Below the pieces are notes generated by a model that ran no database searches, had not been told where the DNA came from, and saw nothing but the letters and a program-made list of their open reading frames with translations. A stretch of 54,321 nt of DNA from a virus: UHGV virus genome UHGV-0135730, one strand, 5' to 3'. A program made the position numbers and the translations under genes. Of this stretch, positions 10,537 through 37,031 are shown piece by piece. Numbering within the stretch: the stretch's first letter is position 1; every line of letters starts with the position of its first letter.

Positions 10537-10629
10537 TCACCTCATATGGTATTCAATAAACCACCTGATAAACAGGCATAAGGCAATAAAACCCCAGCAA
10601 CAGCACATATAAAACAATGTGTCGTCCAT
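10537..10629 (-). CDS. Small hydrophobic peptide (30 aa)
   Basis: MDDTLFYMCCCWGFIALCLFIRWFIEYHMR; packed between flanking genes (3-nt gaps). Confidence 0.4.
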   Translation of the reverse strand: MDDTLFYMCCCWGFIALCLFIRWFIEYHMR

Positions 10630-10631
10630 AA

Positions 10632-10850
10632 TTAAGCCTCAATAACACCGTAATCAAACGTGCCCAAATACCGTTCGATACTTACAACTTCAATACCATC
10701 AACGCACCGTTTCCACACAGACACCTGGCTTTCATTTTCTCTGAAGTGCATATTAGAAAGCACTTCATCGGCTGGATAGCCTTTCCCGGCGACGTAGGCA
10801 TCGTGACCTACTCCACCCTCAACACAATAAAGCATTAATTCGCGGGCCAT
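10632..10850 (-). CDS. Hypothetical protein
   Basis: 72 aa ORF downstream of predicted promoter. Confidence 0.45.
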   Translation of the reverse strand: MARELMLYCVEGGVGHDAYVAGKGYPADEVLSNMHFRENESQVSVWKRCVDGIEVVSIERYLGTFDYGVIEA

Positions 10851-10924
10851 CTTATTTCCCTCCGCACCGTAAACCTTTTGATTTCAGTTCACAAAACGGA
10901 TTCGCGATCACAATACAAAACGTA

Positions 10925-10953
10925 TATTTATGTGATCGCAATCACGATGTCAA
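10925..10953 (-). promoter_or_regulatory. Candidate sigma70 promoter with operator-like palindrome in spacer
   Basis: Minus strand TTGACA-17-TAAATA; the 17-nt spacer contains palindrome TGTGATCGCAATCACG (10931-10946). Confidence 0.5.
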
Positions 10954-11570
10954 TGAAGTACGCGTTTTTCAGGTTCTGGCATTGGCTGTGCGTCTTTCCG
11001 TGCGTCATTAAGCACGGCTATAGCTGCCTGTACACCTAAATCATTTGCGCGCATATTATTGCCAACCATTTCGCCGTAAAATAATGGCATGATCGCCTTT
11101 ACTTCTTCCTCTGTGTGCCCTTCATCAATACACTTCTGTAACGCTTTAGCCTCGAATACTTTTTTCATTACGCCGCGCATAGAATACAGCGCAACGCTAC
11201 CCATATGATTTTTATCTAACGGGAAAATAACCGCACTTCCGAACGCCAGCGGGTCAATTTCTTCCGGCACTGGCACGCGACCATACTCCTCTTCCATGCG
11301 CTTTACGAAAGTAAGGCAGAAGACATAGCGAGCTACGGCAGTTTTTTCTTCAGCGTTTAAAGACACATAATCGCGGATCGACGCGTCCATCACAATATCA
11401 ACAATCTGTAACGCCAGATTCAAATCGGCGTCATACTTGCCAGATTCCATATCTTTCAATACTTCGTGATAATCTTTAATTTCCACTTCATGAAAACTTG
11501 CGTCTTCAGTGTAGCGAGTGATTAACATGCCTTCGCTGCCGAGTGAATAAGCTGTTTTGATGTCTTTCAT
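10950..11570 (-). CDS. Hypothetical protein
   Basis: 206 aa ORF. Confidence 0.5.
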   Translation of the reverse strand: MKDIKTAYSLGSEGMLITRYTEDASFHEVEIKDYHEVLKDMESGKYDADLNLALQIVDIVMDASIRDYVSLNAEEKTAVARYVFCLTFVKRMEEEYGRVPVPEEIDPLAFGSAVIFPLDKNHMGSVALYSMRGVMKKVFEAKALQKCIDEGHTEEEVKAIMPLFYGEMVGNNMRANDLGVQAAIAVLNDARKDAQPMPEPEKRVLH

Positions 11571-11583
11571 GATATTTATCCTT

Positions 11584-11916
11584 TTATAGTGGGTGATGCC
11601 ATTTCATTTCTGTTTCTGAATTAAACGGGTTTCCTTCGCTTGAAAGGAATAAATCACGCTCCCGTTTCAGTTCTTCCGGGCTTATTTCTATTTCATCAAT
11701 CTGACCGAACGATCCCGGCATCATTCGTTTTAAATCAGATAGCGGACGCATAAGGCCGCAGCCGCGTAACAGCATATCGACCGCGAATTGTCTACGTCCG
11801 GCGGCGTCATTAAAGCGCCGCGCCCAGGGCACAACCACGATCCGGCGTTCGAATTCGATAAATAGTGATAGCTTGTTTGTTTCGCTATCATATGCTTTAT
11901 GGAATTTAATTTTCAT
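11584..11916 (-). CDS. Hypothetical protein
   Basis: 110 aa ORF. Confidence 0.45.
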   Translation of the reverse strand: MKIKFHKAYDSETNKLSLFIEFERRIVVVPWARRFNDAAGRRQFAVDMLLRGCGLMRPLSDLKRMMPGSFGQIDEIEISPEELKRERDLFLSSEGNPFNSETEMKWHHPL

Positions 11917-12097
11917 TTAACACCTCAACATATTGTTCAAGATGCCATTGACCCACCTCATCATCTTCCTCGTCAAATAATGTTACCTGACCACCAGGCC
12001 CAAAAGAAAAGGCAGCTATGATAAATTTATACCCATACCACGTACGGATCTTTTCGCCGCCTTTTAAATCTTTAACTTTCACCAATTTTATAGCCAT
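11906..12097 (-). CDS. Hypothetical protein
   Basis: 63 aa ORF. Confidence 0.4.
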   Translation of the reverse strand: MAIKLVKVKDLKGGEKIRTWYGYKFIIAAFSFGPGGQVTLFDEEDDEVGQWHLEQYVEVLNEN

Positions 12098-12360
12098 ACG
12101 CCGAACATCCCATTCAGTCCGGCGAACAATTTCCGCCAGTGGTTTTCAACATAAGCCCGGAACGGCTTAACGCGAACATTGCGGGCCTTCAGTTCAATCT
12201 TGTCGAAGAAACGCGGCTCTATAATTGTTCCATCTAGATATTTAACCAGGATCGGGCGCTCAAGATCGTTATATGTCTTGTTCAGCACAACCAGACCAGG
12301 GTCTTTACGGTATTCCGGGAGCACGACCAGATCGCCCGTTTTGATATTCATGAATGGCAT
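12088..12360 (-). CDS. Hypothetical protein
   Basis: 90 aa; ATG at 12360 overlaps stop of upstream peptide gene (TGATG). Confidence 0.45.
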   Translation of the reverse strand: MPFMNIKTGDLVVLPEYRKDPGLVVLNKTYNDLERPILVKYLDGTIIEPRFFDKIELKARNVRVKPFRAYVENHWRKLFAGLNGMFGVWL

Positions 12361-12476
12361 CACATCACCCCGCCGATATAGCTAATAATTGCCGCAGTCG
12401 CGCCAGCCATTACCACCATGAAGACGAAAGCGACCACGCAGAAAACAGCCTTGACAGTATTTTTGTCGACTCGCAT
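12360..12476 (-). CDS. Small hydrophobic peptide (38 aa)
   Basis: MRVDKNTVKAVFCVVAFVFMVVMAGATAAIISYIGGVM; single predicted TM helix. Confidence 0.45.
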   Translation of the reverse strand: MRVDKNTVKAVFCVVAFVFMVVMAGATAAIISYIGGVM

Positions 12477-12483
12477 ATAAACC

Positions 12484-12591
12484 TCACATGTCAGTAATCA
12501 GCTTAACAATCGCCACAGTGATATAAAGTGACGCAATAAGGTAAACAGCCGCCACAGCAACGGCGGCGGATAACATTGCAATCTTTTTCAT
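12484..12591 (-). CDS. Small hydrophobic peptide (35 aa)
   Basis: MKKIAMLSAAVAVAAVYLIASLYITVAIVKLITDM; ATGA overlap with upstream gene. Confidence 0.45.
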   Translation of the reverse strand: MKKIAMLSAAVAVAAVYLIASLYITVAIVKLITDM

Positions 12592-12827
12592 TTGCCACCC
12601 TCCGCAATGAACTTATCAAGCCATTTGTTATTAGCCAGCCGTTCTTTGTCATTACCAAAACTGTTTCTGCTTAAAAGCTCCTGTTTTGTTAATTGCGGCC
12701 ACTTATCCGTCCACCCAGCCGACGTATCGAACTCATACAGACCGCCGTCAAAAGTAACAAAGTCATCAGCCGTGTCAGGCACTTCTTTATCAACTTCTTT
12801 TTCTTCGATCATGATTTGATACCTCAT
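12588..12827 (-). CDS. Hypothetical protein
   Basis: 79 aa ORF. Confidence 0.45.
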   Translation of the reverse strand: MRYQIMIEEKEVDKEVPDTADDFVTFDGGLYEFDTSAGWTDKWPQLTKQELLSRNSFGNDKERLANNKWLDKFIAEGGK

Positions 12828-13120
12828 TAATCGTTAATGACCTGGCCCATACGCCCGCGATATTTGCGCATACGTGGATCGACATATTCAGGCCAATGCA
12901 TATCCGGTTTTCTTTGCAGTGGGTAAAAACTTGCCTGCCAGTTGTCGAACCATATTTGCTTTGCGTACAGGTCACTAAATCTTTTCGCCATTCGTTCCGC
13001 TGCCGTGCCGCATAAAAAAAGCCCGCGATCGATTTGATCACGGGCTTCTCTTAAAACTTGCTCTTTTGTTCGCGGAATCGGTGGCGCATTAAGATAATGC
13101 GTGGATTCTGCTTTTTCCAT
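12827..13120 (-). CDS. Hypothetical protein
   Basis: Start at MEKAEST; downstream of SSB. Confidence 0.4.
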   Translation of the reverse strand: MEKAESTHYLNAPPIPRTKEQVLREARDQIDRGLFLCGTAAERMAKRFSDLYAKQIWFDNWQASFYPLQRKPDMHWPEYVDPRMRKYRGRMGQVIND

Positions 13121-13556
13121 ATTGTAACCCAATAGGAGCAAATGGAATATCGTCGTCGAGGTCCATCGGCGGCGCATTATTCCCGTTATTATTCTGCTGC
13201 TGCGGCGGCGCTTTCTGCTGCTGGCCTTGCTGCTGGCCTTGTTGGTTAACGTTCATGAATTCGAATTCGTTAACCGCCACTTCAACCGCCGTCCCCTTCG
13301 TGCCGTCGTTCCGGTCATATTGCCGAACATCCAGGCGACCGCTTACCACTATTTTTCCACCCTTACGAATATGTGGCGCTAATTTTTCCGCACGCTCGCC
13401 AAATACCAGGCAAGTGATCCACATTACCCGCTTATTATCGCCGTAGCCATTCGTTACAGCTAACGGAAAGCTACCAATAGCTTTACCGTTTTGCGTGTAG
13501 CGAACTTCCATATCATTTCCGATATTACCGCCCAGCATGATTGAATTTAAGCTCAT
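13089..13556 (-). CDS. ssb: Single-stranded DNA-binding protein
   Basis: OB-fold-like N-terminus, Gln/Gly-rich linker, C-terminal acidic tip DDDIPF. Confidence 0.85.
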   Translation of the reverse strand: MSLNSIMLGGNIGNDMEVRYTQNGKAIGSFPLAVTNGYGDNKRVMWITCLVFGERAEKLAPHIRKGGKIVVSGRLDVRQYDRNDGTKGTAVEVAVNEFEFMNVNQQGQQQGQQQKAPPQQQNNNGNNAPPMDLDDDIPFAPIGLQYGKSRIHALS

Positions 13557-14209
13557 TAACCGATCTCCCCGTTAAGCTCTTTTAAGCGAATATCATAAAC
13601 GTCTTTAGCTTTCTGTTGCTGCTCTGAATCTTTAGGAAGTAGCTTCCAGCACTTTCCGAAGATCTCGCGTAACTTGTTAGCGTCCGGCGCTTTCGCTGCC
13701 GCATCACAGAAACGCGCTAACACTTCATCAGGATTTGGCGGCGCTTTCTGCTGCTGTGGTTTCTGATTAGTTTGTTGTTTTGGTGGGTTTTTCTGTTGGC
13801 GAGGCTGCTGGCCTGTCTGCTTAGCGTATGCGTCAGTATCAGGATCTCGCGCATCGTCAATGCAGAACAATCCGTTCAACGCGTATTTACGCGCATAACT
13901 TGATGTCGCGCCAGTTAACTGGCTTGCGTCCATTCCCTTCTTGCTTTCTTCTTCCCTGGCGTAAGCAGTTACCGCAATTTCATCTTCGCCGTCGCTTAGT
14001 GTAGCCGTGGCTTTCACATAATAGCGATTGCCGATCAGGACGATTTCATCGCTAACAGTCAGCGTTATATTTTGAAGAAGTGGCTTAACCGCCTCCAAAA
14101 TATCCTCCGCCGACCTGTAATTGTACCCACCAAAATTATTACGCTGATTTTTCGGCGCGTTCAACGTTTGTTGAATCGTCCACAGCTTTTTGTGTAACTC
14201 TGTTTTCAC
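13556..14209 (-). CDS. erf: ERF-family single-strand annealing recombinase
   Basis: N-terminal FGGYNYRSAEDILEAVKPLL and TGATSSYARKYALNGLF typical of ERF; GTG start with AGGAG RBS. Confidence 0.75.
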   Translation of the reverse strand: MKTELHKKLWTIQQTLNAPKNQRNNFGGYNYRSAEDILEAVKPLLQNITLTVSDEIVLIGNRYYVKATATLSDGEDEIAVTAYAREEESKKGMDASQLTGATSSYARKYALNGLFCIDDARDPDTDAYAKQTGQQPRQQKNPPKQQTNQKPQQQKAPPNPDEVLARFCDAAAKAPDANKLREIFGKCWKLLPKDSEQQQKAKDVYDIRLKELNGEIG

Positions 14210-14328
14210 TCTTTGATCTCCTTCGCTGTTAACACTATGTATAAGGCTTTATTCGCGGCGCTCCACATTTCGGCATCGTGAAGCATTTCCGCTACTGCCA
14301 GTTTGAATTGAAGCGCCTCGATAACCAT
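14206..14328 (-). CDS. Hypothetical small protein (40 aa)
   Basis: GGAGG RBS; stop overlaps erf start (GTGA). Confidence 0.35.
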   Translation of the reverse strand: MVIEALQFKLAVAEMLHDAEMWSAANKALYIVLTAKEIKE

Positions 14329-14358
14329 AATGTAACCTCCGAATGTTTACATTTTGTA

Positions 14359-14649
14359 TTAATGGTAACGGACTTTATCCAGGGGTTTCTCCCCTAAATG
14401 GCGTGGTTGCGTTGCGTGGTAGTAGCTGCCACTTTCATTTTCCGTATACCATTTTACTGATCCTTTGCGACGTTCTTTTTTGCCATCTGGCTTGCATCTT
14501 TCGTCACTTGCCATTCGAATGGCTTTTTCCACATTGTCAGTTTTATTAATTGCAGGTGATGATTTTCTTTCGTTTTCTCTTTTTATCCTTCTGCGTTCCC
14601 TGGCATTTATTTTGCTATCACATTTACCATATATAATTGTAACGCTCAT
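14359..14649 (-). CDS. Arg-rich basic protein, candidate N-like antiterminator
   Basis: First gene after the pL-like promoter and a 340-nt leader; N-terminal arginine-rich motif NARERRRIKRENERK resembles N-family ARM. Confidence 0.4.
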   Translation of the reverse strand: MSVTIIYGKCDSKINARERRRIKRENERKSSPAINKTDNVEKAIRMASDERCKPDGKKERRKGSVKWYTENESGSYYHATQPRHLGEKPLDKVRYH

Positions 14650-14705
14650 AATCTGATCTCCGTATATCCTTGATGATACTTAATAAAAAATCATCTTCGT
14701 TAATT

Positions 14706-14743
14706 GCCGCACTTCCAGCGGCTGACCAGATTGTTAATGAGCG
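14706..14743 (-). promoter_or_regulatory. Candidate nutL (boxA-like plus boxB-like hairpin)
   Basis: Minus strand CGCTCATTA (boxA-like) then 12 nt then hairpin GCCGC-UGGAAGU-GCGGC, upstream of the N-like gene. Confidence 0.35.
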
Positions 14744-14997
14744 GCTTAACATCTTTCAACTAATCCCGCAATCATCGCCGTTCCCGGCGTGACCTTGCTC
14801 ACTCCAAGCAAGCTGACTCGTCGCCTTGCGTGCGGTTTCGTGGGGGATGTAACGCTTTAAACACCCCATGCGCCTTGTTATCAGTGCCGCTTTCGGTCCC
14901 CCATCGGGGAGTTACTCCACGGTTGACAAGGTGTTAAGCCTGATTTTTAAAGTGCCAGGAAGTTGCTTTTGTTGCCTGCTCCCTTCCTTTGATTCGC

Positions 14998-15040
14998 AAT
15001 ATACGCCCCGTAAAACACCGAGTCAATCCATTTTGTATAC
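14998..15040 (-). promoter_or_regulatory. Early leftward promoter (pL-like)
   Basis: Minus strand GTATACAAAATGG-A-TTGACT-17-TATATT. Confidence 0.6.
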
Positions 15041-15107
15041 TTTTTTAAAATATTTTATATACTATTGATATTTAAACAATAAATAGCGTTTTCTGTTTAC
15101 GTTTTGG

Positions 15108-15145
15108 TGTTTTTTCGAACAAAGAAAAGCCGCCACCAGGCGGCT
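15108..15145 (-). terminator. Rho-independent terminator after repressor gene
   Basis: Hairpin AGCCGCC-ACCA-GGCGGCT followed by T-rich run on minus strand. Confidence 0.6.
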
Positions 15146-15150
15146 AATGT

Positions 15151-15798
15151 TTATGGCAGGTTTACGATCTTCGCATCAACAACCACGCCAATGATTTTTG
15201 ACTCTGGATTCATAGGGATCGGCGGATACAACGGATTCAGTGAACGCAAAAGTTTTCGGCCTCCATCAATAATCAACTGTTTAAACGTAGGTATCTGCCC
15301 TTCCTCCAGTTGTGCTATAACAAGTTTTCCGTCAATAGCTGGCGCGTGCGGGTCAACGAGTATCATAGTCCCCGCCGGGATGCTTAACCCCTGCGGTGCG
15401 TTCATTGATTCACCTTTAGCAACCAGCCAATAACTATCATCCGAACAAATAACGCTAGTAGCAACGTGTGGCAATGTTGATCGGTGTGTGCCTTCCATAT
15501 TGTTTGCTACATCCTTCCAGTCAACAACCGGGTAACTGCCTAAATCACGCGGTGGCGCTCCCGACAACGTGTTAGAAACAGAATCATCAATGACCATTCC
15601 GTCATGAGTAACAGTAAATTGCCGACGCCCAAGCGCCCGCATGATACGCGCAATATCTTCAAGATTCGGCTCACGGCGACCGTTCAGCCAGTGAGAAAGG
15701 CCGCCTTTGGTTATCCCCATAAGATCAGCCAATGAATCCTGGCTCATGCCCTGCGCCCGCATGAGTTGTTTTGCTAAGTCATACCATTTTGTTTTCAT
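15151..15798 (-). CDS. CI-like prophage repressor (HTH plus S24 LexA-like peptidase)
   Basis: N-terminal HTH (QDSLADLMGITKGGLSHWLNG), C-terminal S24 domain with GESM serine motif. Confidence 0.85.
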   Translation of the reverse strand: MKTKWYDLAKQLMRAQGMSQDSLADLMGITKGGLSHWLNGRREPNLEDIARIMRALGRRQFTVTHDGMVIDDSVSNTLSGAPPRDLGSYPVVDWKDVANNMEGTHRSTLPHVATSVICSDDSYWLVAKGESMNAPQGLSIPAGTMILVDPHAPAIDGKLVIAQLEEGQIPTFKQLIIDGGRKLLRSLNPLYPPIPMNPESKIIGVVVDAKIVNLP

Positions 15799-15857
15799 GT
15801 CGCTACCCTATAACCTAAAAAATTTTGATGCAAGTCACAAAACGTGTTTTTCAAGCC

Positions 15858-15885
15858 TTGACCTGTTAGCGCCATTATGTAAACT
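15858..15885 (+). promoter_or_regulatory. Early rightward promoter (pR-like) within operator region
   Basis: TTGACC-16-TAAACT; flanked by TTGATGCAAG / CTTGCAATGATGCAAGG operator-like repeats. Confidence 0.45.
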
Positions 15886-15961
15886 TGCTGACAAGGTAAA
15901 GCCATACTTGCAATGATGCAAGGAAAAAGATAAGGGAAAGCACAAAAAGGCCGACGCCTTA

Positions 15962-15995
15962 AGCTCTTTAAAAATCCGGTGTCGCTGCGAAGCGA
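15962..15995 (+). promoter_or_regulatory. Candidate nutR (boxA-like plus short hairpin)
   Basis: AGCTCTTTA followed by hairpin TCGC-TGCGAA-GCGA in the rightward leader. Confidence 0.25.
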
Positions 15996-16103
15996 AAAAC
16001 AAATATCACGCAACGGCGGGATCTGTTGAGCGGTCAGTCACTGCTATCTAATGCTAATGGGATGCCCGCCCGCGCGTTCACTCTAACCATAGGAGAAAAG
16101 AAT

Positions 16104-16349: not shown

Positions 16350-16355
16350 TTCGTC

Positions 16356-17363: not shown

Positions 17364-17496
17364 CCAACCACGATCTGCAAAAATCCAAAATTACCCACAA
17401 AACAACCTCACCGGCGAGCTAAAACACGCATGGTGCTACGACTGCATATCTTTAGCGGTCTAGCTCGTTATAGAGCGTTTTAGAGAGGATTTTAAA

Positions 17497-17598
17497 ATGG
17501 ACGGTAAACACGTTTTCGCCCTGGCCTTTGCCATCGCTGCTGCAATCGCTGTTAACGTCGCTTTGTTCGGCGGTTTGTTCCTTCTTATCAATCCATAA
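17497..17598 (+). CDS. Small hydrophobic peptide (33 aa)
   Basis: MDGKHVFALAFAIAAAIAVNVALFGGLFLLINP; GAGAGGA RBS; intergenic between initiator and antirepressor. Confidence 0.4.
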   Translation: MDGKHVFALAFAIAAAIAVNVALFGGLFLLINP

Positions 17599-17730
17599 CC
17601 TTCATACCAGTCTGTAAATCAAAAATTAGCCACCTGAAAGCGCCTCTGACGCAATAAGACACTGCAACCTGTGCAAACGGGTTACGCGGTGGGATTTTTG
17701 CGTTGTAGCGCGTTTTACGGAGAAATTACA

Positions 17731-18474: not shown

Positions 18475-18507
18475 GTATACATTTTGTTAACTGGAGGGAT
18501 TAACATT

Positions 18508-19626: not shown

Positions 19627-19644
19627 ACCGGAGGTAATGACATA

Positions 19645-21060
19645 ATGGTAACTGAGCAAATAAACTCACTACGGCAGGAACGTGAAGCGTCAGTTATCGG
19701 CGGGCTGCTGTTAGGTGGCCTCACTCCTAACGCGCAAGATGTTCTCGCCACTCTGGATCCTGAAGTGTTCACGATCTCGCTTTACAAACGTGCGTTTGAA
19801 GTTATCCGGGCGCAAGCCAGAAACAGGAATCTTATCGACGCGTTATTGGTTGGCGATGAGATTGGGAATGAAAACTTTGTTCCTCTGATGCAAACGGCGC
19901 GATCGTGTCCTTCTGCCGCCAACCTGAAGGGATACGCACAGCTACTACGTGAAGAGCACCAGCGGCGGCAGATGTTGGAACTCATCGACGATATGCGCTA
20001 CAAGCTGGAAACGGGGACGCTTGAAGTCGTCAAAGAGACGATGAAAGATTTTGATTCCCGGTACTCAAAATTAAAAGTAACTAAAGACAAGATCATTCCT
20101 GTTCTGTTGCGCGATGCGGTACAGGAATACACGGAGGTTTTAAGCAAGCGCATGGAATGCGGTGTCAATTCTGACAACATCAAAACAGGGATAGAACCAC
20201 TCGACGAAATGTTAGGCGGCATTAACGCTACTGATTTGGTGCTTCTCGCCGGACGTCCTGGGTCTGGTAAATCTGCGTTGGCGCTTGCAATTGCCCGCGA
20301 GGCTGCCGAACGCCCTTACCCTGGCGGCGAAGGTCAGCGGGTAGGCGTTTTGCTGTTTACGCTTGAAATGTCACTCGATCAGATGACTGAGCGGGCTATA
20401 GCTGGCGCTGGCAATTTATCAACTGACTGCCTGCGCAATCCGGTAAAACTTGATGATGAGGGGTGGGCGCATGTCGGCCAGGGTATGAGCGCACTTGCTA
20501 ATCTTGATGTGTGGATCGTTGACGCGTCGCAGTTAACGGTTGAGGAAATACGCGCAACAACGGAACGCATGAAGCAGGATCACCCGAACCTGGGTATGGT
20601 AATGATTGACTATATCGGGTTAATGAAGCTGGCTAAAGCCGAACGTCACGATCTCGCCGTGGGGCAATTATCGTGGTCGTTAAAGATGATGGCTAAAGAA
20701 TTGCGCGTACCAGTGTTGGCGCTGGCGCAATTGTCACGCCGAGTTGAGGAACGACCAAACAAGCGCCCTAATAATTCTGATCTTCGTGATTCTGGCAACC
20801 TTGAGCAAGATGCCGACAGGATAATCATGGTTTACCGCGATGGATATTACGACGAACAGTCTGTTGCCCGCGAATATATGGAAATCATTGTGTCAAAAAA
20901 CCGTCATGGTAAGTCTGGAACTGTTTACCAGCGGTTTGATGACAACGGTAATATCTTGCCATGCGACCAGGCGCGCGCAGCCGCAGCGTGCATTCAGTCA
21001 ATGAATCATCGCACAAGCCGTTTTAACCAACGAAACAATCAGAATAACGCATCTTTTTAA
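19645..21060 (+). CDS. DnaB-family replicative helicase
   Basis: Walker A GRPGSGKS, RecA-like C-terminal domain; 471 aa. Confidence 0.85.
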   Translation: MVTEQINSLRQEREASVIGGLLLGGLTPNAQDVLATLDPEVFTISLYKRAFEVIRAQARNRNLIDALLVGDEIGNENFVPLMQTARSCPSAANLKGYAQLLREEHQRRQMLELIDDMRYKLETGTLEVVKETMKDFDSRYSKLKVTKDKIIPVLLRDAVQEYTEVLSKRMECGVNSDNIKTGIEPLDEMLGGINATDLVLLAGRPGSGKSALALAIAREAAERPYPGGEGQRVGVLLFTLEMSLDQMTERAIAGAGNLSTDCLRNPVKLDDEGWAHVGQGMSALANLDVWIVDASQLTVEEIRATTERMKQDHPNLGMVMIDYIGLMKLAKAERHDLAVGQLSWSLKMMAKELRVPVLALAQLSRRVEERPNKRPNNSDLRDSGNLEQDADRIIMVYRDGYYDEQSVAREYMEIIVSKNRHGKSGTVYQRFDDNGNILPCDQARAAAACIQSMNHRTSRFNQRNNQNNASF

Positions 21061-28661: not shown

Positions 28662-28666
28662 AAGAA

Positions 28667-28694: not shown

Positions 28695-31600
28695 AACCTG
28701 AGAATGTACCAGAACCGCGCGACACAATGACAGTCGGCGAGTTTATATATGCCCCCTTACTATTTTGAGCGGATACACTAATTATCACTGTAACGCTCCT
28801 GTTAGCTACTGATGCTGCGTGCATAACAAGGCGCTCTTCGCCAGTCATAGAAAGTTGTTTCTGCGAACCGCTGATGTTTATCGTACATCCGCCGAAGCCC
28901 TTAACGTTTGCTATGACACAAACATGTCGGGCGTATGCTGCGTCTGTTGTATCGTAGTACTGAATTGTTTTTTGCAATACGCCATTTTGTAACCTGCTAA
29001 CGTCAGATCCCGTATACATGTTCGCAACGTCACCGATAAATGTCTTCGCTTCCAGTTGTCCTGAGAATTTACCGTTGGTTGCGTACACTGTACCGTTAAA
29101 CACCCCATCATTAGCGTATACCGTGCCCCTTATTGTTGCCTGGTTAAATACTGCTGCACCGTTTTTGTTTATCGCCCAGCCTGTACCGTTTTCCCAGCTG
29201 TAATTACTGGATTGTATTTGCTGAGCTATTTTTGCAGTAGTGATCGATGCGTCTTTAATAAACGCTTCTTTCACATACATTGCACCGTTAGACACATAGA
29301 ATGGCGTTGTATATGTGCCGTTTGCAGCCGTCATCAACACGAAGCGGTCAACAAGGAAGATACACTGCGATTGGACGTTAGTACCGTTGCCAGTCAGCCC
29401 AAGCGACATACCTGTCGCATACTTCATGCCGTTGTTGTCGGTTGCCAGCTTGATGGAATACGTCGCATCGACATTACCTTTGAAGTCGGTTAACGCTTTC
29501 GAAGTAGTCTGTATAGCTGTTGTGTTCCCGTTAACGGTCACTGTTAGCTGATCGATTTTGCTTGATAATGCCTCGTCAGCCGTTGCCATTGTCTGTGACC
29601 ATTCTGTAATACTTGAGTTTACAGAATCGAAAGACGCTGAGATCTGGCCGAATTTTTCCGCGCTTGATGCCTCATGCGTAGAAAGCGCCGTTGATACCTC
29701 AGACACCTTCGAGTTAATCGTACTGGTAAGCGATGAGTTAAGGTTACTTATCGCGTCAGTGCGTGCCTTCGTTTCGTCAGCGACGGCCTTGTCGAGACGG
29801 TTAACGTTGCTTGTCACTTTGCCATCAAGGGTTGAAATTGATGCGTTCACGCCAGTGATGGCTTGTGCTCTGGCGCTGGACTCGTCAGCAATCGCCTGGT
29901 CCAGTCTGCTAACCTCGGATTCAGTGTTGCTTTCGAGGGTGTTAATGCTCGCATTCACTCCACTGATAGCTTCTGTTCTTGCGCTGGTTTCGTTGGCAAT
30001 AGCCTGATCTAAACGTTTAACGCTGGCGTCGGTTTTCTTGTCGAGCGCTGAAATGCTTGCGTTAACGTTGCTCACCGCCTGGCTGCGTGCGTTGGTTTCG
30101 TCAGCGATAGCCTTATCGAGACGTGAAACGCTGGCATCGGTTTTCTTATCAAGATCCGTGATCGATGCTTTTACCACGCCGATTGCTTCGGCTGTAGCTT
30201 TTTTCTCTTCAGCGATAACACTGTCAATACGATCAATCTGCGCGCTTGTTTCCTTGCGACCTTTCTTGTACTGGGCCGTAAGCGTAACACGCGTGTTGGT
30301 TTGAGCGATTGAGTTGTTAATCAGAGCAATAGATGCGTTTTGCAGGCTTGCTTTGGTCTGGCTTATTTCGTCGCTGTTCTTGTCAACGTTATTTTCAACC
30401 TTGCCAAGCTCGGCGCTGATTCCAGATATAGCCTGAGCACGGGCGCTTGATTCGTCAGCAATAGCCTGGTCTAAGCGTTTTACGCTGGCGTTTGTGTTAC
30501 TTTCGAGCGTTGTTAAATCAGCTTTAACCTCTGTTATTGCGTCGCTTCTTGCCTGCGTTTCATCTGCTATTGCTTTATCGAGTCTGGAAACGCTGGCGTC
30601 TGTTTTGCTTTCAAGGTTGCTTATTGATGCTTTCACATCGCTCACAGCCTGGGCGCGGGCGCTGACCTCGTCAGCAATAGACTGGTCAAGGCGTTTAACT
30701 GCCGAATTGGTGTTACCTTCAAGCGTGTCAATACTTGCTTTGACACTACTGATAGCTTCAGTTCTTGCACTGGTTTCGTCTGCTATTGCTTGATCCAGGC
30801 GTTTAACGCTGGCGTCGGTTTTCTTGTCAAGCGCTGAAATGCTTGCGTTAACGTCACTGACTGCCTGTGTGCGGGCGTTCGTTTCGTCTGCAATAGCCTG
30901 ATCAAGTCTATTGACGCTGGCATCGGTTTTCTTGTCGAGATTGCTTATTGATGCGTTCACGCCGTTAATTGCTTCGGCGCGGGCACTGGTTTCGTCAGCT
31001 ACTGCGCGTTCCACGCTGGAGATCTGACCCTTGAGGTTGGAATCCATCGTGTTCATTTCTGCCGTGATGGTTTTCAGAGATTCAGCCGTGGCCTGTTTCT
31101 CATCAGCAATAACGTTGTCAATGCGGTCAATTTCAGCCTTCGTCTCTGTCCTGCCTTTCTTGTACTGTGCAGTGAGAGTAACCCGCGTGTTGGTCTGAGC
31201 AAGGGAGTTGTTGATAAGTGCCAACGACGCGTTTTGCAGGCTTGCTTTTGCTTGCGCCAGTTCACTGCCAACTTTTTCGCTGGATACCTCCAGAGAGTCT
31301 ATTCTTGCCTCATGCTGTCCAATATCGTCGGCGTTTTCCCCAACCTTTTTGTAAAGATCTTCCGTCTCTTTTTTCAGTGTGTCCGTGTCAGCTTTTATGG
31401 CCCCTGTTTCTGTGATTAGGCCGTCCGTATCAGTCCTCAATTCGTCAGTGATGTTTGTCAGGTTGTCAGTGTCAACCCTTAAATCGTCAGTGATGTTTGT
31501 CAGGTTATCAGTTGCAGTTTTGAGGCTGTCAGTAGCGTCTTTAAGGTCATTTGTAGCGCTTTCGATAAGGTCGGCGCGGTTGCCAAGATCTTCAATATCG

Positions 31601-34077
31601 CTAATCATGCCCTTGAACTGCTCTGACCCCATGACGTCCTTCATCACGTAGTCGCTGATTTCGTCAAAGTTTTCAGTCGGTTTACCTGATGCCTCAACGA
31701 AGTCTGACACACCGAAAGCGTTACGCGTGCGCACATAAACGTAATAGGTGTGGCCCGTGTTCATGCCGCCAAAAGTCCATTGGTAGCCGCGCCCGGTGAA
31801 TTGCGCCAGCGTGGTTACTTTTGACGGGTCTGTGATCTGATTCTCACCTGAGTAGTAAAACTCATATGCCGTATCAGTGGTCAGCGTTGTTTTGCTGATC
31901 GGGTAGACTGTTGCCTGGAAGACGCCCGGAATCCAGTTGACTCCAATCGGGGCCGCTGGCGCACCAATAACCAGGTCAACAATACTTTCCGCACCCTTCA
32001 TACCAGTGTCATTACGCCCGCGAATACCAAGCGTGTAGCTGCCAGCGTTGAGGCCATAGAAATCATAACGGTAATTCGTGGTTTCATAAGTTGCCACTAC
32101 ACGCCCATCTGCGTTATATACGCGGATTTCAAAGGTCAGGCGATGCGTTGTTGTCTGTGTTTCCCACGTTGCGCGGCATTGAACCGTCTCAGAACCAACA
32201 TTTAACACCCTCAGGTTTTCGATGTTCGGAACGCGGAAGTGATTAAGCGTGTCGTTGTTTACCTCGAAGATTGCACCTTCATCAACTACAGCCTGTTTAT
32301 GCGGATCGTGCTGTGCAGCCTCAATGGTGTACACGCTGTTATTTTCGGTTTCCGCTACACTGGTAATTCGGCACAGAACCGGTTTTGCAGATTCAGTAGA
32401 CACGGCGAATACGGTTCCGTTGCGGATCCATGCTGGCGCTGCCGCAAGGGTAATATTGTTTCCGTTAACCCCAGTGATCTGATGTTTTTTAAACTTGCCA
32501 TCGCTGTCCAGCAAGCTGATGGTGTCACCAGCCGCCACCAGGTCAGAATCAACCTTGTCTACAGTTATTACTTTCCCGTTATTCGCCACGATGCGACCGC
32601 CTAAACGAGCGCCTGCGCGGTTATTGTCGAGTATCTCGATAATATCCCCTGGGGTGAAGTGAATTGCGTCACGGGCCATTTTAAACGTGAATTTTGAGGG
32701 TTCGCGTTTTGCTGTTTCTATCAGCCATTTGCCTGCGCGGTACGCCTGCCCGCGTGATGTGCAACCAAAAGCCTCCAACGTGGTTTCGTTGTAACCATCG
32801 CGGGCGATCAGTTCATCATCTGCCACGTATTCTTTTGATTGTTCCCAACCGTTTTCCGGGTCAGTCCATGATACGATCACGGCGTTGTAAGATTCTGCGC
32901 GAGCGATACTTGAACGAGTGAACGCGCCATCAACGACGTTAGCATTCGTGATGGTGGCAATTGGATCCTGAGGCGCATCAATCATCACAGTAAGGCGCTG
33001 CCCGTCCCATAACGCGATACCACGGAACATGCCCGCAATGTTGTCCAGCAAGTCGCGTGCGCTCATTTGCTCAGTGATGTATGCGTTAAGCGTCATGCGT
33101 GGTTCAAGGCCACCGTAACCGTCGTTTACCAACTGGTCGCAGTATTGAGAAAGCGTATACAGTGCGCCGTCATCAACGTCGATGTAACCAGCGTGGCGGG
33201 CAAGCCCGAAGCGTTCATTTTTAACCAGATACCGGAAAAGCCATGCAGGGTTGTTGGTATATGCCTTTTTAAAGCCACCAAGCCATAAACCTGAATATGT
33301 GCGCGTTTCCGGGTCGTAGTTATCAGGCACGTCAACAATCAGACCGCGCATGTGATAGGTACGTGTCGGCGTGTCAGTATACTGATCGTGGTCAATTACC
33401 GCGCCTGCTACAGCGGTGTGAGGATAAGATAAATTATCGTCGATTATCTCGCTGTAACTGCTCCACCTGGTGTCATTGCGAAGTAGATCGCTTTTGCTGT
33501 CTGGCGTTATGCGACGAACGCGGATGTCAAACGGTTTTTCATCCGGTGCCTGGATGATATGCGCTTCCATGTACTCGCCGCTTTGCTTACCAGGGCCAAT
33601 GGTAATGCCTTTAACAATTGACCATGTTGTTGATGATGAAGGCTTAACGTCAACAGCCAACGTAACAGATGTGTTGTATTGATTGCCTTTATCATCTGAC
33701 TGAACCAGAGAATCGACACCAAGATTCAGCCTTACGCGGTTAACGTTTGGATCTGAAACGGTTCGGATTATTGGTGTATCGTAAGTCACTTTTGCGTTAA
33801 CAATAACGGTTGATTCAATGGCGTTGAATCCGTTGATTGGTGACTGGTCTGCCGTACCATTACGCCACGCCACGCTGACGCCGGGGACTGATGTATTACC
33901 GTTGGCGTCAGTGATTGGGCTGTCATTAAGCATTACGCTGTTTAATGGCGCTTTCTGGTTTACAGGTCCATAGATTGGGCCCTCGCTGAGAATGTCCAAA
34001 ACGCGATAGAACTGTTTATGGAACAGGTTATCGTTTAATAGTGTTGGTGTTTTGGCTTTGCCGCCGCCGCTACTCAT
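28693..34077 (-). CDS. Central tail fibre / host-specificity protein (lambda J-like) with inserted coiled-coil repeat region
   Basis: 1794 aa; N-terminus MSSGGGKAKTPTLLNDNLFHKQFYRVLDILSEGPIYGPV parallels lambda J; central 36-aa tandem repeats; J-like C-terminal domain. Confidence 0.8.
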   Translation of the reverse strand: MSSGGGKAKTPTLLNDNLFHKQFYRVLDILSEGPIYGPVNQKAPLNSVMLNDSPITDANGNTSVPGVSVAWRNGTADQSPINGFNAIESTVIVNAKVTYDTPIIRTVSDPNVNRVRLNLGVDSLVQSDDKGNQYNTSVTLAVDVKPSSSTTWSIVKGITIGPGKQSGEYMEAHIIQAPDEKPFDIRVRRITPDSKSDLLRNDTRWSSYSEIIDDNLSYPHTAVAGAVIDHDQYTDTPTRTYHMRGLIVDVPDNYDPETRTYSGLWLGGFKKAYTNNPAWLFRYLVKNERFGLARHAGYIDVDDGALYTLSQYCDQLVNDGYGGLEPRMTLNAYITEQMSARDLLDNIAGMFRGIALWDGQRLTVMIDAPQDPIATITNANVVDGAFTRSSIARAESYNAVIVSWTDPENGWEQSKEYVADDELIARDGYNETTLEAFGCTSRGQAYRAGKWLIETAKREPSKFTFKMARDAIHFTPGDIIEILDNNRAGARLGGRIVANNGKVITVDKVDSDLVAAGDTISLLDSDGKFKKHQITGVNGNNITLAAAPAWIRNGTVFAVSTESAKPVLCRITSVAETENNSVYTIEAAQHDPHKQAVVDEGAIFEVNNDTLNHFRVPNIENLRVLNVGSETVQCRATWETQTTTHRLTFEIRVYNADGRVVATYETTNYRYDFYGLNAGSYTLGIRGRNDTGMKGAESIVDLVIGAPAAPIGVNWIPGVFQATVYPISKTTLTTDTAYEFYYSGENQITDPSKVTTLAQFTGRGYQWTFGGMNTGHTYYVYVRTRNAFGVSDFVEASGKPTENFDEISDYVMKDVMGSEQFKGMISDIEDLGNRADLIESATNDLKDATDSLKTATDNLTNITDDLRVDTDNLTNITDELRTDTDGLITETGAIKADTDTLKKETEDLYKKVGENADDIGQHEARIDSLEVSSEKVGSELAQAKASLQNASLALINNSLAQTNTRVTLTAQYKKGRTETKAEIDRIDNVIADEKQATAESLKTITAEMNTMDSNLKGQISSVERAVADETSARAEAINGVNASISNLDKKTDASVNRLDQAIADETNARTQAVSDVNASISALDKKTDASVKRLDQAIADETSARTEAISSVKASIDTLEGNTNSAVKRLDQSIADEVSARAQAVSDVKASISNLESKTDASVSRLDKAIADETQARSDAITEVKADLTTLESNTNASVKRLDQAIADESSARAQAISGISAELGKVENNVDKNSDEISQTKASLQNASIALINNSIAQTNTRVTLTAQYKKGRKETSAQIDRIDSVIAEEKKATAEAIGVVKASITDLDKKTDASVSRLDKAIADETNARSQAVSNVNASISALDKKTDASVKRLDQAIANETSARTEAISGVNASINTLESNTESEVSRLDQAIADESSARAQAITGVNASISTLDGKVTSNVNRLDKAVADETKARTDAISNLNSSLTSTINSKVSEVSTALSTHEASSAEKFGQISASFDSVNSSITEWSQTMATADEALSSKIDQLTVTVNGNTTAIQTTSKALTDFKGNVDATYSIKLATDNNGMKYATGMSLGLTGNGTNVQSQCIFLVDRFVLMTAANGTYTTPFYVSNGAMYVKEAFIKDASITTAKIAQQIQSSNYSWENGTGWAINKNGAAVFNQATIRGTVYANDGVFNGTVYATNGKFSGQLEAKTFIGDVANMYTGSDVSRLQNGVLQKTIQYYDTTDAAYARHVCVIANVKGFGGCTINISGSQKQLSMTGEERLVMHAASVANRSVTVIISVSAQNSKGAYINSPTVIVSRGSGTFSG
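29560..31560. repeat. In-frame tandem repeats within J-like gene (about 108-bp units plus a higher-order duplication)
   Basis: Repeated units encoding ...KKTDASVKRLDQAIADETSARTEAISGVNASI...; duplicated block encoding LTAQYKKGR... at about 30260 and 31160. Confidence 0.75.
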
Positions 34078-34090
34078 GGTTTTTCTCCTG

Positions 34091-34621
34091 TTAACTTACA
34101 ACGTCAAGGGCGTCTCTGTTGTTACTTGTGTCTATGCCTAACGACCCGACATTTGAACCTATTTTCATTTCACCCAACAGGATCGGCACTGGTCTACCCT
34201 GGCCTACCTTGTTTTCAACGCTGGTGTATGTGTTGTTAGATATGGTGTTATCTTGTGCGCTTTCTGCTGATGTTTTTATCTTCATGTTGCGTGACATAAA
34301 GATCGAGAATGCAACGCTAACAACCGAAACACCAATCAAAATCCAGCCTACAACGCCAATCCCCGCAATACCACCTTCCACAACTGGTGCAACAATGACT
34401 GTGGTTCCGTCCGGGTATTTACTGTTAACCGCTGCGGGCGCGGTCTTTTCGTCATAATCTTTCCCGGCAATCCTCAGGCGCAAAGGGGTATTTAAAAACG
34501 CCTTCTTGAACTCATGATTCTGCGCAACCAATAAGTTAAGACCTTGCGCTGGCGTATCAACGTTCAAACACACCTTGCCGTAATATCTTCGAAGATTGCC
34601 CGTAAATCTAAACTTGAGCAT
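34091..34621 (-). CDS. Tail assembly protein I-like
   Basis: 176 aa, position between K and J, hydrophobic central segment. Confidence 0.6.
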   Translation of the reverse strand: MLKFRFTGNLRRYYGKVCLNVDTPAQGLNLLVAQNHEFKKAFLNTPLRLRIAGKDYDEKTAPAAVNSKYPDGTTVIVAPVVEGGIAGIGVVGWILIGVSVVSVAFSIFMSRNMKIKTSAESAQDNTISNNTYTSVENKVGQGRPVPILLGEMKIGSNVGSLGIDTSNNRDALDVVS

Positions 34622-35295
34622 TTGTCAGATCTCCATATTGAATTGGTCTGTCGAACATACGCGGGCCGCATTTGCTCGCGGCGGCTTAACAGTCCGGCAT
34701 TGTCATGATGCAAAACAGTGTTATCGCCCAGGTAAATCATCGCGTGGCATGGGTCAGCGCCTTTAAACGGCTGGCGGATAATCACGTCACCGGGCTGAAT
34801 GCTTTGCGCGTCAACCATGAAAAACCCGTTCAATGGCAGGTTCTTTATGTACAGGTTTTCCCCACGCAGCCACCACCCGTCGTGGCGTTCAAAGTCAGGC
34901 AGATCCACGCCGCATAGGTGATAGGCGTCACGGAAAAGCGAATAACAGTCTGTTTTCCCGTGCTCAAATTTACGGCCTAACAGGTGCGCCACTGGGCGGA
35001 ATTTTCTCACCCTGCCACCGGAGCACAAAAACCACGGCAGGCCGGAAATAACCTGCTGTTGTCGATCCCGCGCTGACAACACCAATGAATCATTAGTATG
35101 TGAGTGGAAAACAGCTGTTATAACGCCCAATTCGTCAGCTTTGATATAATCGTCAGGAGAGATTTTAAAACTGTTGTGCGGCGTTTCAGACACGTTAGCG
35201 CACGGGTAAAAATAATCGTTATCTATCACCAGCCCGCACACTTCCTCGCGCGGGTGGGCTGCCGCATAGCGAATCATTTTATCTTCAAGTGCCAT
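34564..35295 (-). CDS. Tail assembly protein K-like (MPN/JAMM plus NlpC/P60)
   Basis: HSHT JAMM-like motif (FHSHTNDS) and C-terminal Cys/His peptidase-like region; start at MALEDK. Confidence 0.7.
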   Translation of the reverse strand: MALEDKMIRYAAAHPREEVCGLVIDNDYFYPCANVSETPHNSFKISPDDYIKADELGVITAVFHSHTNDSLVLSARDRQQQVISGLPWFLCSGGRVRKFRPVAHLLGRKFEHGKTDCYSLFRDAYHLCGVDLPDFERHDGWWLRGENLYIKNLPLNGFFMVDAQSIQPGDVIIRQPFKGADPCHAMIYLGDNTVLHHDNAGLLSRREQMRPAYVRQTNSIWRSDKCSSLDLRAIFEDITARCV

Positions 35296-35297
35296 AA

Positions 35298-36002
35298 TTA
35301 ACCGACCTTGCTTGATCCGGGAAAACATGAAATTGGTAACGGATTGGGGCGCGGGAAACGCAAACGGCAACCGCTCAGGCGGTGGCTGCATTTATCCAGC
35401 TTTGGATCGCTGGTCGATTCGTCTTTATCTGTAGCTACAGGGCCGCCACTGTATCCGCAACCGTCGCCCCGGTATTGCCACTGGCAAACGTCAGCAAGGA
35501 TTGTGCGCCCAGGAATAACCGCCTTGTCAGCATCAATTGGCGTTGACAGTTCATACTGCACCTGGTCGGCTGTTTCTTCGCTCATCGCCTCAACGACGTA
35601 AAAAGATACAGCCTCGATAGATGGATCTGCATCCGGGTTGCCGTTGGGGAAATTAACGGCGTCCAGGTATTTTACTTCCACTTGGCGGCGCGTAACCTTC
35701 ATTCCTCGCAGGTCGTTAAAATCGTTGTTCATCCCGGTGATTAGCCCGCCAATGTTGGCTACTACCATTTGCGGGCGCGAGTAAACGCCTTCGTTTTTCA
35801 TTTCGAAGCCAGTAGCCTCGATTGGGTAGCTGTTGTAAGTCACTCCCTTCCAGATAACCGGGCCGTAATAACCATTCGCGCCGGAATGGAAGCGGATAAC
35901 CTCGCCACCCAGGGGTGTGAGGTCTAATTCAAACAGGTCAATTACCGCGCCGACTCCGGCATCGACGGAATCAATAATCATTTCTGTAGGTATGGTGCGC
36001 AT
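35298..36002 (-). CDS. Minor tail protein L-like
   Basis: 234 aa, position and C-terminal Cys cluster as in lambda L. Confidence 0.65.
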   Translation of the reverse strand: MRTIPTEMIIDSVDAGVGAVIDLFELDLTPLGGEVIRFHSGANGYYGPVIWKGVTYNSYPIEATGFEMKNEGVYSRPQMVVANIGGLITGMNNDFNDLRGMKVTRRQVEVKYLDAVNFPNGNPDADPSIEAVSFYVVEAMSEETADQVQYELSTPIDADKAVIPGRTILADVCQWQYRGDGCGYSGGPVATDKDESTSDPKLDKCSHRLSGCRLRFPRPNPLPISCFPGSSKVG

Positions 36003-36020
36003 TTTATCACCTTGTCATTT

Positions 36021-36084
36021 TGTGATCGCCATCACGCTAAATCATACCAAAACGGTTGATCGCGTTTTTTACAATACGTATATT
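36021..36084 (+). promoter_or_regulatory. CRP-like palindrome plus sigma70 promoter for cargo cassette
   Basis: TGTGATCGCCATCACG (36021-36036) centred about 62 bp upstream of predicted start; TTGATC-17-TATATT at 36056-36084. Confidence 0.5.
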
Positions 36085-36100
36085 GTACTCAAAAGGAAGC

Positions 36101-36286
36101 ATGGTTAACAAAATGGCGCGGAGGTGTGAGGTGGATGATAAGGTGTGGAGGTTGACGGTGTTCCTTAGTGATGGCAGGAAAATGACTGTAGCTCTGTATA
36201 AGGATGAAGGCGAGGCACTGACTGACGCGCTTTTACTTGCTGAAGACGATCGCGTTTTGGGGTACAGGATCGAACCTGTCAAATGA
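36101..36286 (+). CDS. Hypothetical protein (cargo cassette)
   Basis: Start at MVNK with AAGGAAG RBS. Confidence 0.5.
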   Translation: MVNKMARRCEVDDKVWRLTVFLSDGRKMTVALYKDEGEALTDALLLAEDDRVLGYRIEPVK

Positions 36287-36298
36287 GAGGTTAACGAA

Positions 36299-36646
36299 AT
36301 GCAAAAATATAGTCTTGATGTGTGGTTAAGTGGTTGCAAGGAGTGTTTCGGATTATTTGATAGCGAAGAGGCAGCTTTGGAAGAAGGAAGGATTCTTGAA
36401 TGTAGTTTAGGCCATCCAGTGAAATATGCTGCTAATCCGGTGCAGGTAAATGATGAGGTGGAAAACATGAACCCGAAAGATATTAACTTTAACGTCAATG
36501 TTGAATTTGCAGGCTCTATGGATCAGGCTTGCCCTGGTGAAATCCACGCAAAAGGCTTCCCGGCTGACGATCCTGAGGCAAAACGCGAATACGAAAAAGC
36601 GGCGAAAGACTTCTGCATTGATAACCTGGGCGCATTCGATAAATAA
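36299..36646 (+). CDS. Hypothetical protein (cargo cassette)
   Basis: 115 aa ORF on strand opposite to tail operon. Confidence 0.55.
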   Translation: MQKYSLDVWLSGCKECFGLFDSEEAALEEGRILECSLGHPVKYAANPVQVNDEVENMNPKDINFNVNVEFAGSMDQACPGEIHAKGFPADDPEAKREYEKAAKDFCIDNLGAFDK

Positions 36647-36655
36647 GGCGGCAAC

Positions 36656-36904
36656 ATGGGGCGGCGCAATCACGGCGATTATGTGTACACGTTGAAACAG
36701 GCCGCCCGCCTAGTTGGTTATCATGAACACGAATTTATTGATTTGCTGATTGAGCGCGGGATACTGTACCAGGTCTGTTTAACGCTGTACCCGAAAGCGA
36801 AATACCTACAGGAAAAGTTATTCATCATCATGACGGATGAAAACCAGGTTAACCATTCATTCGTCACGGATAAGGGCGTTAATTATCTGCGTGATAACTT
36901 ATAG
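36656..36904 (+). CDS. Putative HTH DNA-binding protein (cargo cassette)
   Basis: YTLKQAARLVGYHEHEFIDLLIERGIL resembles MerR/excisionase-type HTH. Confidence 0.45.
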   Translation: MGRRNHGDYVYTLKQAARLVGYHEHEFIDLLIERGILYQVCLTLYPKAKYLQEKLFIIMTDENQVNHSFVTDKGVNYLRDNL

Positions 36905-36914
36905 GTGACAGATT

Positions 36915-37031
36915 ATGAAAATAGAAGTTTTGGCGCTAATAATAATGGGATTGATAGTATTTGGCGTTCATGCTGTAGATCTGGACTGGAAAACGATAGC
37001 GGAAAATATAGCATTAATGGAAATGGAATAA
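36915..37031 (+). CDS. Small hydrophobic peptide (38 aa)
   Basis: MKIEVLALIIMGLIVFGVHAVDLDWKT...; last ORF before terminator. Confidence 0.35.
   Translation: MKIEVLALIIMGLIVFGVHAVDLDWKTIAENIALMEME

Follow-up and report, generated by a model that had tools for sequence, protein, structure and literature searches.

Small membrane proteins of bacteria, such as AcrZ, KdpF, MgrB, and CydX, act by binding larger membrane proteins (PMC12648545). Proteins of this kind are also encoded by phages and prophages. For example, the moron gp15 of phage HK97, which belongs to the YebO family, is expressed from the prophage as an inner-membrane superinfection exclusion protein (PMC3594210). Small transmembrane gene families are predicted in phage genomes (Fremin et al. 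2022, as cited in PMC11188072), and conserved hydrophobic small open reading frames (smORFs) are found between genes in Enterobacteriaceae (PMC11188072). The DNA examined here is the virus genome UHGV-0135730, a stretch of 54,321 nucleotides (nt) that is called the window below. It comes from a temperate Escherichia coli phage of the mEp021/"mEpimmI" group, whose members are Nus-dependent, non-lambdoid temperate siphophages of E. coli (PMC11893012), and it contains five very short open reading frames (ORFs), s1 to s5. Conservation and selection make it very probable that all five are real coding genes for membrane-inserted peptides, and by their predicted features they belong to a known kind, the small membrane proteins of phages and prophages. 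The pangenome paper on the mEp021/mEpimmI group (PMC11893012) makes no mention of small hydrophobic or transmembrane proteins.

Like the bacterial small membrane proteins, s1-s5 have at most 50 amino acids (aa), one predicted transmembrane helix with very short flanks, and no catalytic domain, and like them they are often missed by annotation pipelines. Unlike AcrZ, KdpF, MgrB, and CydX, they are encoded by a phage, occur in a single phage lineage, and have no sequence relation to named families. s5 resembles HK97 gp15 in that it is a small predicted inner-membrane protein encoded by an independently terminated insertion in the tail cluster of a temperate E. coli siphophage. The insertion sites are different, as the s5 cassette lies between tail genes L and M while gp15 lies between the tail chaperone and the tape measure. 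Unlike gp15, s5 is on the opposite strand, is the fourth gene of a multi-gene cassette, and has no match to YebO or to any other Pfam family. The proteins for which exclusion has been demonstrated to date in the mEpimmI phages are Lpp lipoproteins and do not include these peptides. The families of Fremin et al. and of PMC11188072 are also short, conserved, and hydrophobic, lie between annotated genes, and were detected through purifying selection. Compared with those families by description, the window stands out by having at least 16 such genes in one genome, including a tandem array, and by a slot at s5 that is occupied by three alleles.

In megablast searches with three parts of the window against GenBank phages, seven relatives are found with 84-96% nucleotide identity: mEp010, mEp013, mEp021, mEp044, mEp515, mEp554, and MagusPhagus. 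Another 35 relatives are prophages within complete E. coli genomes. The comparison set includes 43 IMG/VR loci over s1-s4 and 43 over s5, plus GenBank and RefSeq records. By tblastn, s1 is found in syntenic position in 47 loci, s2 and s3 in 45 each, s4 in 37, and s5 in 30. Only 38 loci cover the region of s4, and 37 of them keep the gene; six of the seven loci in which s4 was not found are contigs ending short of the region. The sole locus truly without s4 is L045 (3720-4208), where a 77-aa helix-turn-helix gene replaces both s4 and the antirepressor gene.

The frame is open in 100% of the distinct nucleotide haplotypes for all five ORFs, with 21-28 haplotypes each (s1, 23/23; s2, 28/28; s3, 21/21; s4, 24/24). 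Orthologues differ in length only by whole codons, and the variable sites are mostly third positions. This holds at considerable divergence: the haplotypes of s2 (38-40 aa) are down to 42% identical, and those of s3 down to 40%.

The ratio of nonsynonymous to synonymous substitution rates (dN/dS) was obtained from protein-guided codon alignments. Substitutions were counted along a minimum spanning tree of the haplotypes because shared changes would otherwise be recounted. As shown in Table 1, all five genes are under purifying selection (p values are binomial, for an excess of synonymous changes). When all pairs are compared, the ratio of nonsynonymous to synonymous differences (pN/pS) is 0.19-0.42 for s1-s5 and 0.13-0.46 for accepted neighbour genes. 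Synonymous divergence is as high in s1-s5 (0.26-0.55) as in the accepted neighbours (0.25-0.56), implying that selection acts on the protein rather than on an RNA element that overlaps the gene. Any other ORF across the five positions is interrupted in a large number of relatives or has a dN/dS of about 1 or more, except for the antisense partner of s4, which is intact in 74% and has a dN/dS of 0.30, a known artefact of shared third positions. An earlier note, made from the letters of the window alone, had proposed to look in related phages for syntenic conservation with synonymous-site constraint, and had regarded a lack of conserved frames as evidence against these genes. The frames are in fact conserved in about 45 relatives, in synteny and under purifying selection. 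The expected synteny is found and so is constraint on the protein, but synonymous divergence is normal rather than reduced.

Table 1. Coordinates of the five small genes and of the features around them in the window, with dN/dS and p values for s1-s5
Feature	Position	Strand	Description	dN/dS	p
s1	10537-10629	(-)	30 aa, MDDTLFYMCCCWGFIALCLFIRWFIEYHMR; Cys/Trp-rich single-helix peptide (predicted); = mEp010_37	0.16	1.3e-15
s2	12360-12476	(-)	38 aa, MRVDKNTVKAVFCVVAFVFMVVMAGATAAIISYIGGVM; basic N-terminus, 29-residue uncharged core	0.24	2.7e-23
s3	12484-12591	(-)	35 aa, MKKIAMLSAAVAVAAVYLIASLYITVAIVKLITDM; always directly upstream of s2	0.23	2.0e-21
s4	17497-17598	(+)	33 aa, MDGKHVFALAFAIAAAIAVNVALFGGLFLLINP; free-standing, between O gene and Bro-N/KilAC antirepressor gene	0.16	1.2e-17
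s5	36915-37031	(+)	38 aa, MKIEVLALIIMGLIVFGVHAVDLDWKTIAENIALMEME; N-terminal hydrophobic helix, acidic tail; last gene of cassette	0.16	1.1e-28
s5 cassette	36131-37031	(+)	51-aa, 115-aa, 82-aa KilAC, and s5 genes; between minus-strand tail genes L and M		
51-aa ORF	36131-36286	(+)	first gene of s5 cassette		
115-aa protein	36299-36646	(+)	second gene of s5 cassette		
82-aa KilAC/ANT-domain protein	36656-36904	(+)	third gene of s5 cassette		
Tail gene L	35298-36002	(-)	flanks s5 cassette		
Tail gene M	37258-37611	(-)	flanks s5 cassette		
Promoter-like site	36056-36084	(+)	TTGATC-17-TATATT; head of s5 cassette; consensus match only		
Bidirectional intrinsic terminator	37036-37056		ends s5 cassette and a convergent 65-aa gene		
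11-gene array	51890-52808	(-)	22-32-aa hydrophobic peptides		

How often such a pattern arises in the background was seen in a screen of 316 small ORFs (20-60 aa) in the covered regions, 290 of which have at least eight haplotypes and were tested. Among the 290, 21 are always intact and 11 of these have a dN/dS below 0.3; s1-s5 are five of the 11. Note that antisense ORFs within real genes also have low dN/dS (0.06-0.30; 9494-9676 (+), 8184-8357 (+), 20646-20828 (-), and 17460-17591 (-)), because their third codon positions are shared with the true frame. Low dN/dS alone is therefore insufficient, and full intactness and the absence of an overlapping longer gene were also demanded. This artefact is a caution for smORF screens that rest on dN/dS alone. 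The window also has three small non-hydrophobic ORFs, 14206-14328 (-), 2138-2278 (-), and 7035-7211 (-), of 40, 46, and 58 aa, which are always intact with dN/dS of 0.07-0.24; the 58-aa one is Cys-rich with CxxC-like spacing.

The positions, strands, and lengths under which the earlier note had listed the five ORFs all match the sequence exactly. Each begins with ATG and has a Shine-Dalgarno-like motif 6-8 nt upstream (GAGG in s1 and s2, GGAGGG in s3, GAGAGGA in s4, and AGGTGA in s5), so the ribosome-binding sites that it reported are there as well. Its further statement that all are tightly coupled to their neighbours is borne out for s1, s2, s3, and s5 but not for s4. s1 starts 2 nt past the stop of a 72-aa gene and stops 3 nt before the ATG of a 64-aa gene. 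The start of s3 overlaps the stop of the preceding gene (ATGA), s2 starts 7 nt past s3, and the stop of s2 overlaps the start of the following gene (TGATG). s5 starts 10 nt past the stop of the 82-aa gene and ends with TAA TAA TAA, directly followed, within 5 nt, by the GC-rich hairpin of the bidirectional terminator. s4, on the other hand, is separated by 133 nt from the stop of the O gene upstream and by 72 nt from the next start downstream. Nearly all orthologues retain the Shine-Dalgarno motif (GAGG in the case of s1 and GGAGG in that of s3), and the way in which the genes are coupled is conserved as well. A variant of s1 is found in public assemblies as protein P0015 (window 10339-10629). 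In four contigs the s1 stop is changed from TGA to TGG, and s1 is fused in frame with the downstream 64-aa gene to give a 96-aa product.

A single hydrophobic core of 17-29 uncharged residues is present in each peptide. Membrane spans were called from the length of this core and from Kyte-Doolittle hydropathy, whose 17-residue maximum is 2.0-3.3 in all 101 protein variants. The peptides are 30-38 aa long in the window and 29-45 aa in nearly all relatives; a single s3 call has 44 aa, with a doubtful start. At the hydrophobic columns, 110 of 117 alternative residues are non-polar or small and uncharged (s1, 18/18; s4, 13/17). In s2 and s3 this is the case for 61 of 63, despite identities of 40-42%. 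The flanking charges are not the same in all peptides. s1 is acidic at the N-terminus (MDD) and basic at the C-terminus, the N-termini of s2 and s3 are basic, s4 is nearly uncharged, and in s5 an acidic tail comes after a core of 17 residues. By the positive-inside rule these charges suggest that the membrane orientations differ among the five. An AlphaFold2 model of s5, made from an alignment of 18 sequences, has one helix at residues 3-37 with a mean predicted local distance difference test (pLDDT) score of 89. s1, s3, s4, and s5 were also inspected, together with s2, as possible lipoproteins of the Lpp type that mediates exclusion in mEpimmI phages. This reading was rejected, as the lipobox [LVI][ASTVI][GAS]C is absent from these four and present in only 3/26 variants of s2. 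In those s2 variants (e.g., L037 and L016) a lipobox-like VVSC arises via an F-to-S change and is not conserved.

As far as their sequences can be compared, s1-s5 are five mutually unrelated orphan families limited to the mEp021/mEpimmI lineage. With hhalign, no homology is found among the five or between them and the peptides of the 11-gene array, the probability being 40% or less in any pair that includes one of s1-s5. The earlier note had called these mini-genes similar to the array; they are similar in type, but by profile comparison they are not homologous. In tblastn searches of 50,697 phage records, s1 is found in all seven mEp021-group phages and nowhere else, and s5 is found only in this group, in six of the seven phages, with no match in MagusPhagus. 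Profile searches of 5.8 billion proteins give 73 clusters for s2 and 45 for s5, only from close relatives; the matches are all short and come from E. coli or from phage-like contigs of roughly 54 kilobases. All 73 clusters of the s2 family are 37-48 aa long, nearly all 38-40. A full HMMER scan of 1.84 billion representatives with s4 gives three clusters. Searches with the neighbour genes return just PHROGs of "unknown function", one KilAC domain, and one Bro-N/KilAC antirepressor.

The five ORFs are already in databases as unnamed hypothetical proteins, and they have been neither analysed nor discussed before. mEp010 has all five annotated (s1-s5 are mEp010_37, _30, _29, _14, and _107), and s1-s3 are annotated in the part of the MagusPhagus region that covers them. 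Older GenBank annotations of E. coli include the ORFs in up to about 430 contigs, and PHANOTATE and Pharokka records label them hypothetical proteins. s1-s3 are missing from the RefSeq annotation of one prophage by the Prokaryotic Genome Annotation Pipeline (PGAP), and none of the five is in the original mEp021 record. The peptide sequences had no match in the full text of the papers searched.

The genes are found in three different contexts. s1-s3 lie in a long early operon, with Erf, SSB, and anti-RecBCD genes on one side and DNA methyltransferases on the other; in the mEp021 record their positions are flanked by gp21 (anti-RecBCD) and gp30 (adenine methyltransferase). The early transcription unit, in which the N-like Gp17 acts as antiterminator, begins at nutR1/gp17 and reaches nutR2, located downstream of gp32 (PMC11893012 section 3.5). 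Since s1-s3 are inside this published unit, early expression is inferred from the map. They would be translationally coupled links of the operon, made early after infection or induction, while s4 would be a separately initiated gene just past the replication initiator gene. The same early operon also encodes a 77-aa protein with two hydrophobic segments (9911-10144 (-)). In RefSeq its homologue is labelled 'cell division protein FtsK', a name that seems to have been wrongly given to a small membrane protein.

s5 is in the third context. Its cassette has the anatomy of a moron, with a candidate promoter. The GC content of the cassette is 0.44, compared with 0.52-0.53 in L and M, and the CCCCGC...GCGGGG terminator stem follows every s5 or alternative allele in the relatives. 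The cassette occupies one and the same site in all relatives, and when s5 was looked up by exact sequence, the gene order was identical in all contexts fetched. Because the cassette is on the strand opposite to the tail genes and bounded by a terminator, s5 is plausibly expressed from the prophage. A second opposite-strand cassette exists between tail gene M and the tape-measure gene (37780-38655 (+)) and ends at a bidirectional terminator (38633-38655). It has a 51-aa ORF (37780-37935; dN/dS 0.07) followed by a gene for an 84-aa ParE-like protein (37954-38208), and is probably a type II toxin-antitoxin moron.

The s5 slot has three alleles, of 38 aa in 17, 45 aa in 14, and 24 aa in 14 of 45 loci. 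The C-terminus of the 45-aa allele is longer than that of the 38-aa form and different from it. The 24-aa allele (consensus MCEHYVLEMIIIIIGLLCILLSTL) has its own Shine-Dalgarno motif, and its stop is 0-1 nt from the same terminator. For this allele, dN/dS is 0.28 (p=0.0016; from 12 loci recovered by pattern search, with 8 haplotypes), compared with 1.3 and 3.2 in the shifted frames. Thus the slot always encodes a small hydrophobic peptide, and the part after the helix is variable or absent.

Besides the five genes, the window has the 11-gene array of Table 1. All 11 frames are conserved in relatives, with dN/dS of 0.16-0.35, and members a7, a8, and a10 look paralogous (about 92% by hhalign). 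Most of the array peptides have an acidic N-terminus followed by a transmembrane helix, an architecture that is also seen in s1. The count of at least 16 single-helix micro-proteins given in the earlier note thus holds computationally, as the five ORFs and the 11 of the array are all conserved. The repertoire was also described as unusually large. A filter that needs no annotation keeps ORFs of 20-50 aa that start with ATG, have a Shine-Dalgarno motif and a hydropathy of 2.0 or more, and are not within a longer tiled ORF. It passes 12 ORFs of the window and 10 of mEp010 but none of lambda, which supports this description with lambda as the one control genome. Owing to spurious long ORFs, the filter misses s5 and three array members in the window.

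Taken as a whole, these observations are best explained, with a probability of about 0.6, if s1-s5 are selected genes for single-helix inner-membrane peptides that modulate larger membrane proteins. Each peptide would be little more than one transmembrane helix that inserts into the host inner membrane, where it would bind and modulate a larger membrane protein in the way of bacterial AcrZ, KdpF, and MgrB. The early peptides may serve host takeover or early exclusion, and s5 and its alleles may, in analogy to HK97 gp15, be expressed from the prophage for exclusion or for modulation of the host. The parts of this explanation are not equally firm. The chances are about even that the peptides would be modulators rather than toxins. 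A role of s5 specifically in superinfection exclusion is a tentative idea, and a rather doubtful one.

Several points weigh against the explanation. Searches of Pfam, PHROGs, NCBIfam, and PADLOC with s1-s5 gave nothing significant and no homologue of known function; the best Pfam hit of s5, DUF6814, is below threshold (E=0.05). As a tendency, T-rich short ORFs are hydrophobic by composition alone (PMC11188072). Promoter-like matches such as that at the head of the s5 cassette are no commoner than in shuffled sequence (7 found, 6.0 expected). The allele class of s5, compared with the flanking genes for a link to tail specificity, is weakly related to them: identity within classes exceeds that between classes by 0.01-0.08, slightly more on the M/tape-measure side, a result that is confounded by linkage. 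Finally, the start of s5 is lost in seven relatives, implying that s5 is dispensable in some lineages. In six of these ATG has become ATA, and in one a one-base insertion just after ATG shifts the frame at the start (the loci are L054-L057, L060, L061, and L071). As the rest of the frame is still open, these changes suggest recent loss or weak alternative initiation.

A different possibility is that the peptides do not themselves act on host proteins but serve the soluble products of the genes to which they are coupled (72/64-aa, 79/90-aa, and 82-aa KilAC) as membrane anchors or as subunits. Tight and conserved coupling favours stoichiometric co-synthesis, s2 and s3 are always adjacent with allele classes that co-occur in the same loci, and the enterobacterial smORF survey predicted interactions of micro-proteins with the products of neighbour genes (PMC11188072). 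Physical linkage, however, explains the co-occurrence of s2 and s3 equally well. s4 stays where it is in relatives that have another gene downstream instead of the antirepressor gene, and s5 has three very different alleles next to an 82-aa protein that remains 93-97% identical whichever allele is present. Such a role is unlikely.

If they were instead peptides that damage membranes, akin to type I toxins or holins, s1-s5 would oligomerise in the inner membrane and depolarise it, for host shut-off, abortive infection, or prophage stabilisation. In length, hydrophobicity, and single-helix architecture s1-s5 are the same as the type I toxins Hok, TisB, Ibs, Ldr, and ZorO, and a size of 30-38 aa with one transmembrane helix and short flanks matches what is described for such toxins (PMC12648545). 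s4 is free-standing with untranslated spacers on both sides, and the ParE-like cassette nearby shows that the phage carries addiction-type modules. Unlike type I toxin genes, s1-s5 have no detected antisense RNA, promoter of their own, or structured leader. Four of the five are coupled members of operons, where s1-s3 and s5 start 0-10 nt past the preceding gene and have no long structured 5' untranslated region. No Rfam RNA is found in the whole window and no promoter-like site around s4 on either strand. Synonymous divergence is not reduced, unlike what is expected over an overlapping antisense RNA, and none of the five is within a lysis cassette. These differences leave toxins or holins a quite improbable explanation.

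For s5 alone, the peptide could be a Sec signal peptide followed by an acidic peptide of 18-25 aa, cleaved after VHA and released to the periplasm. Its hydrophobic core is short, at about 13-17 residues. In agreement with the -3/-1 rule, the 38- and 45-aa alleles all have V18 and H19 and nearly all have A20, and the region past VHA varies in length and sequence. The 24-aa allele (14/45 loci), however, lacks the region after the helix and is still under purifying selection. In addition, the net charge of the n-region is 0, and the structure model is one unbroken helix, so that secretion of this kind is very improbable. That the ORFs are not genes at all, but are open by chance in sequence kept for coupling spacers, terminators, nut sites, or other signals in RNA or DNA, is hardly credible: they are very short, two annotations omit some or all of them, and s1, s3, and s4 contain weak terminator-like hairpins, but the comparative data contradict this in that purifying selection is frame-specific at normal synonymous rates, no frame is interrupted in the 21-28 haplotypes even where amino-acid divergence reaches 60%, lengths change by whole codons, replacements keep hydrophobicity, and no Rfam match is found in the window.

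Modulation of larger membrane proteins by single-helix peptides can be extended into a bolder picture. The 16-17 or more single-helix genes might be a coordinated tool-kit that rewires the host inner membrane, and the s5 slot might be a diversifying, prophage-expressed specificity determinant that controls superinfection exclusion or releases a periplasmic peptide cleaved at VHA. This extension is a long shot.

No class of phage genes is less well annotated than those for small membrane proteins, and the core, selected status of s1-s5 corrects the gene map of the gut-prevalent mEp021/mEpimmI group. The five orphan families and the array are a compact and testable set of peptides, from early, replication, and prophage contexts, for the effects of phages on the host envelope. 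Among them, the strongest lead is s5, whose slot within a moron in the tail genes has three alleles, and it would be the most direct entry to the question of exclusion or host modulation.

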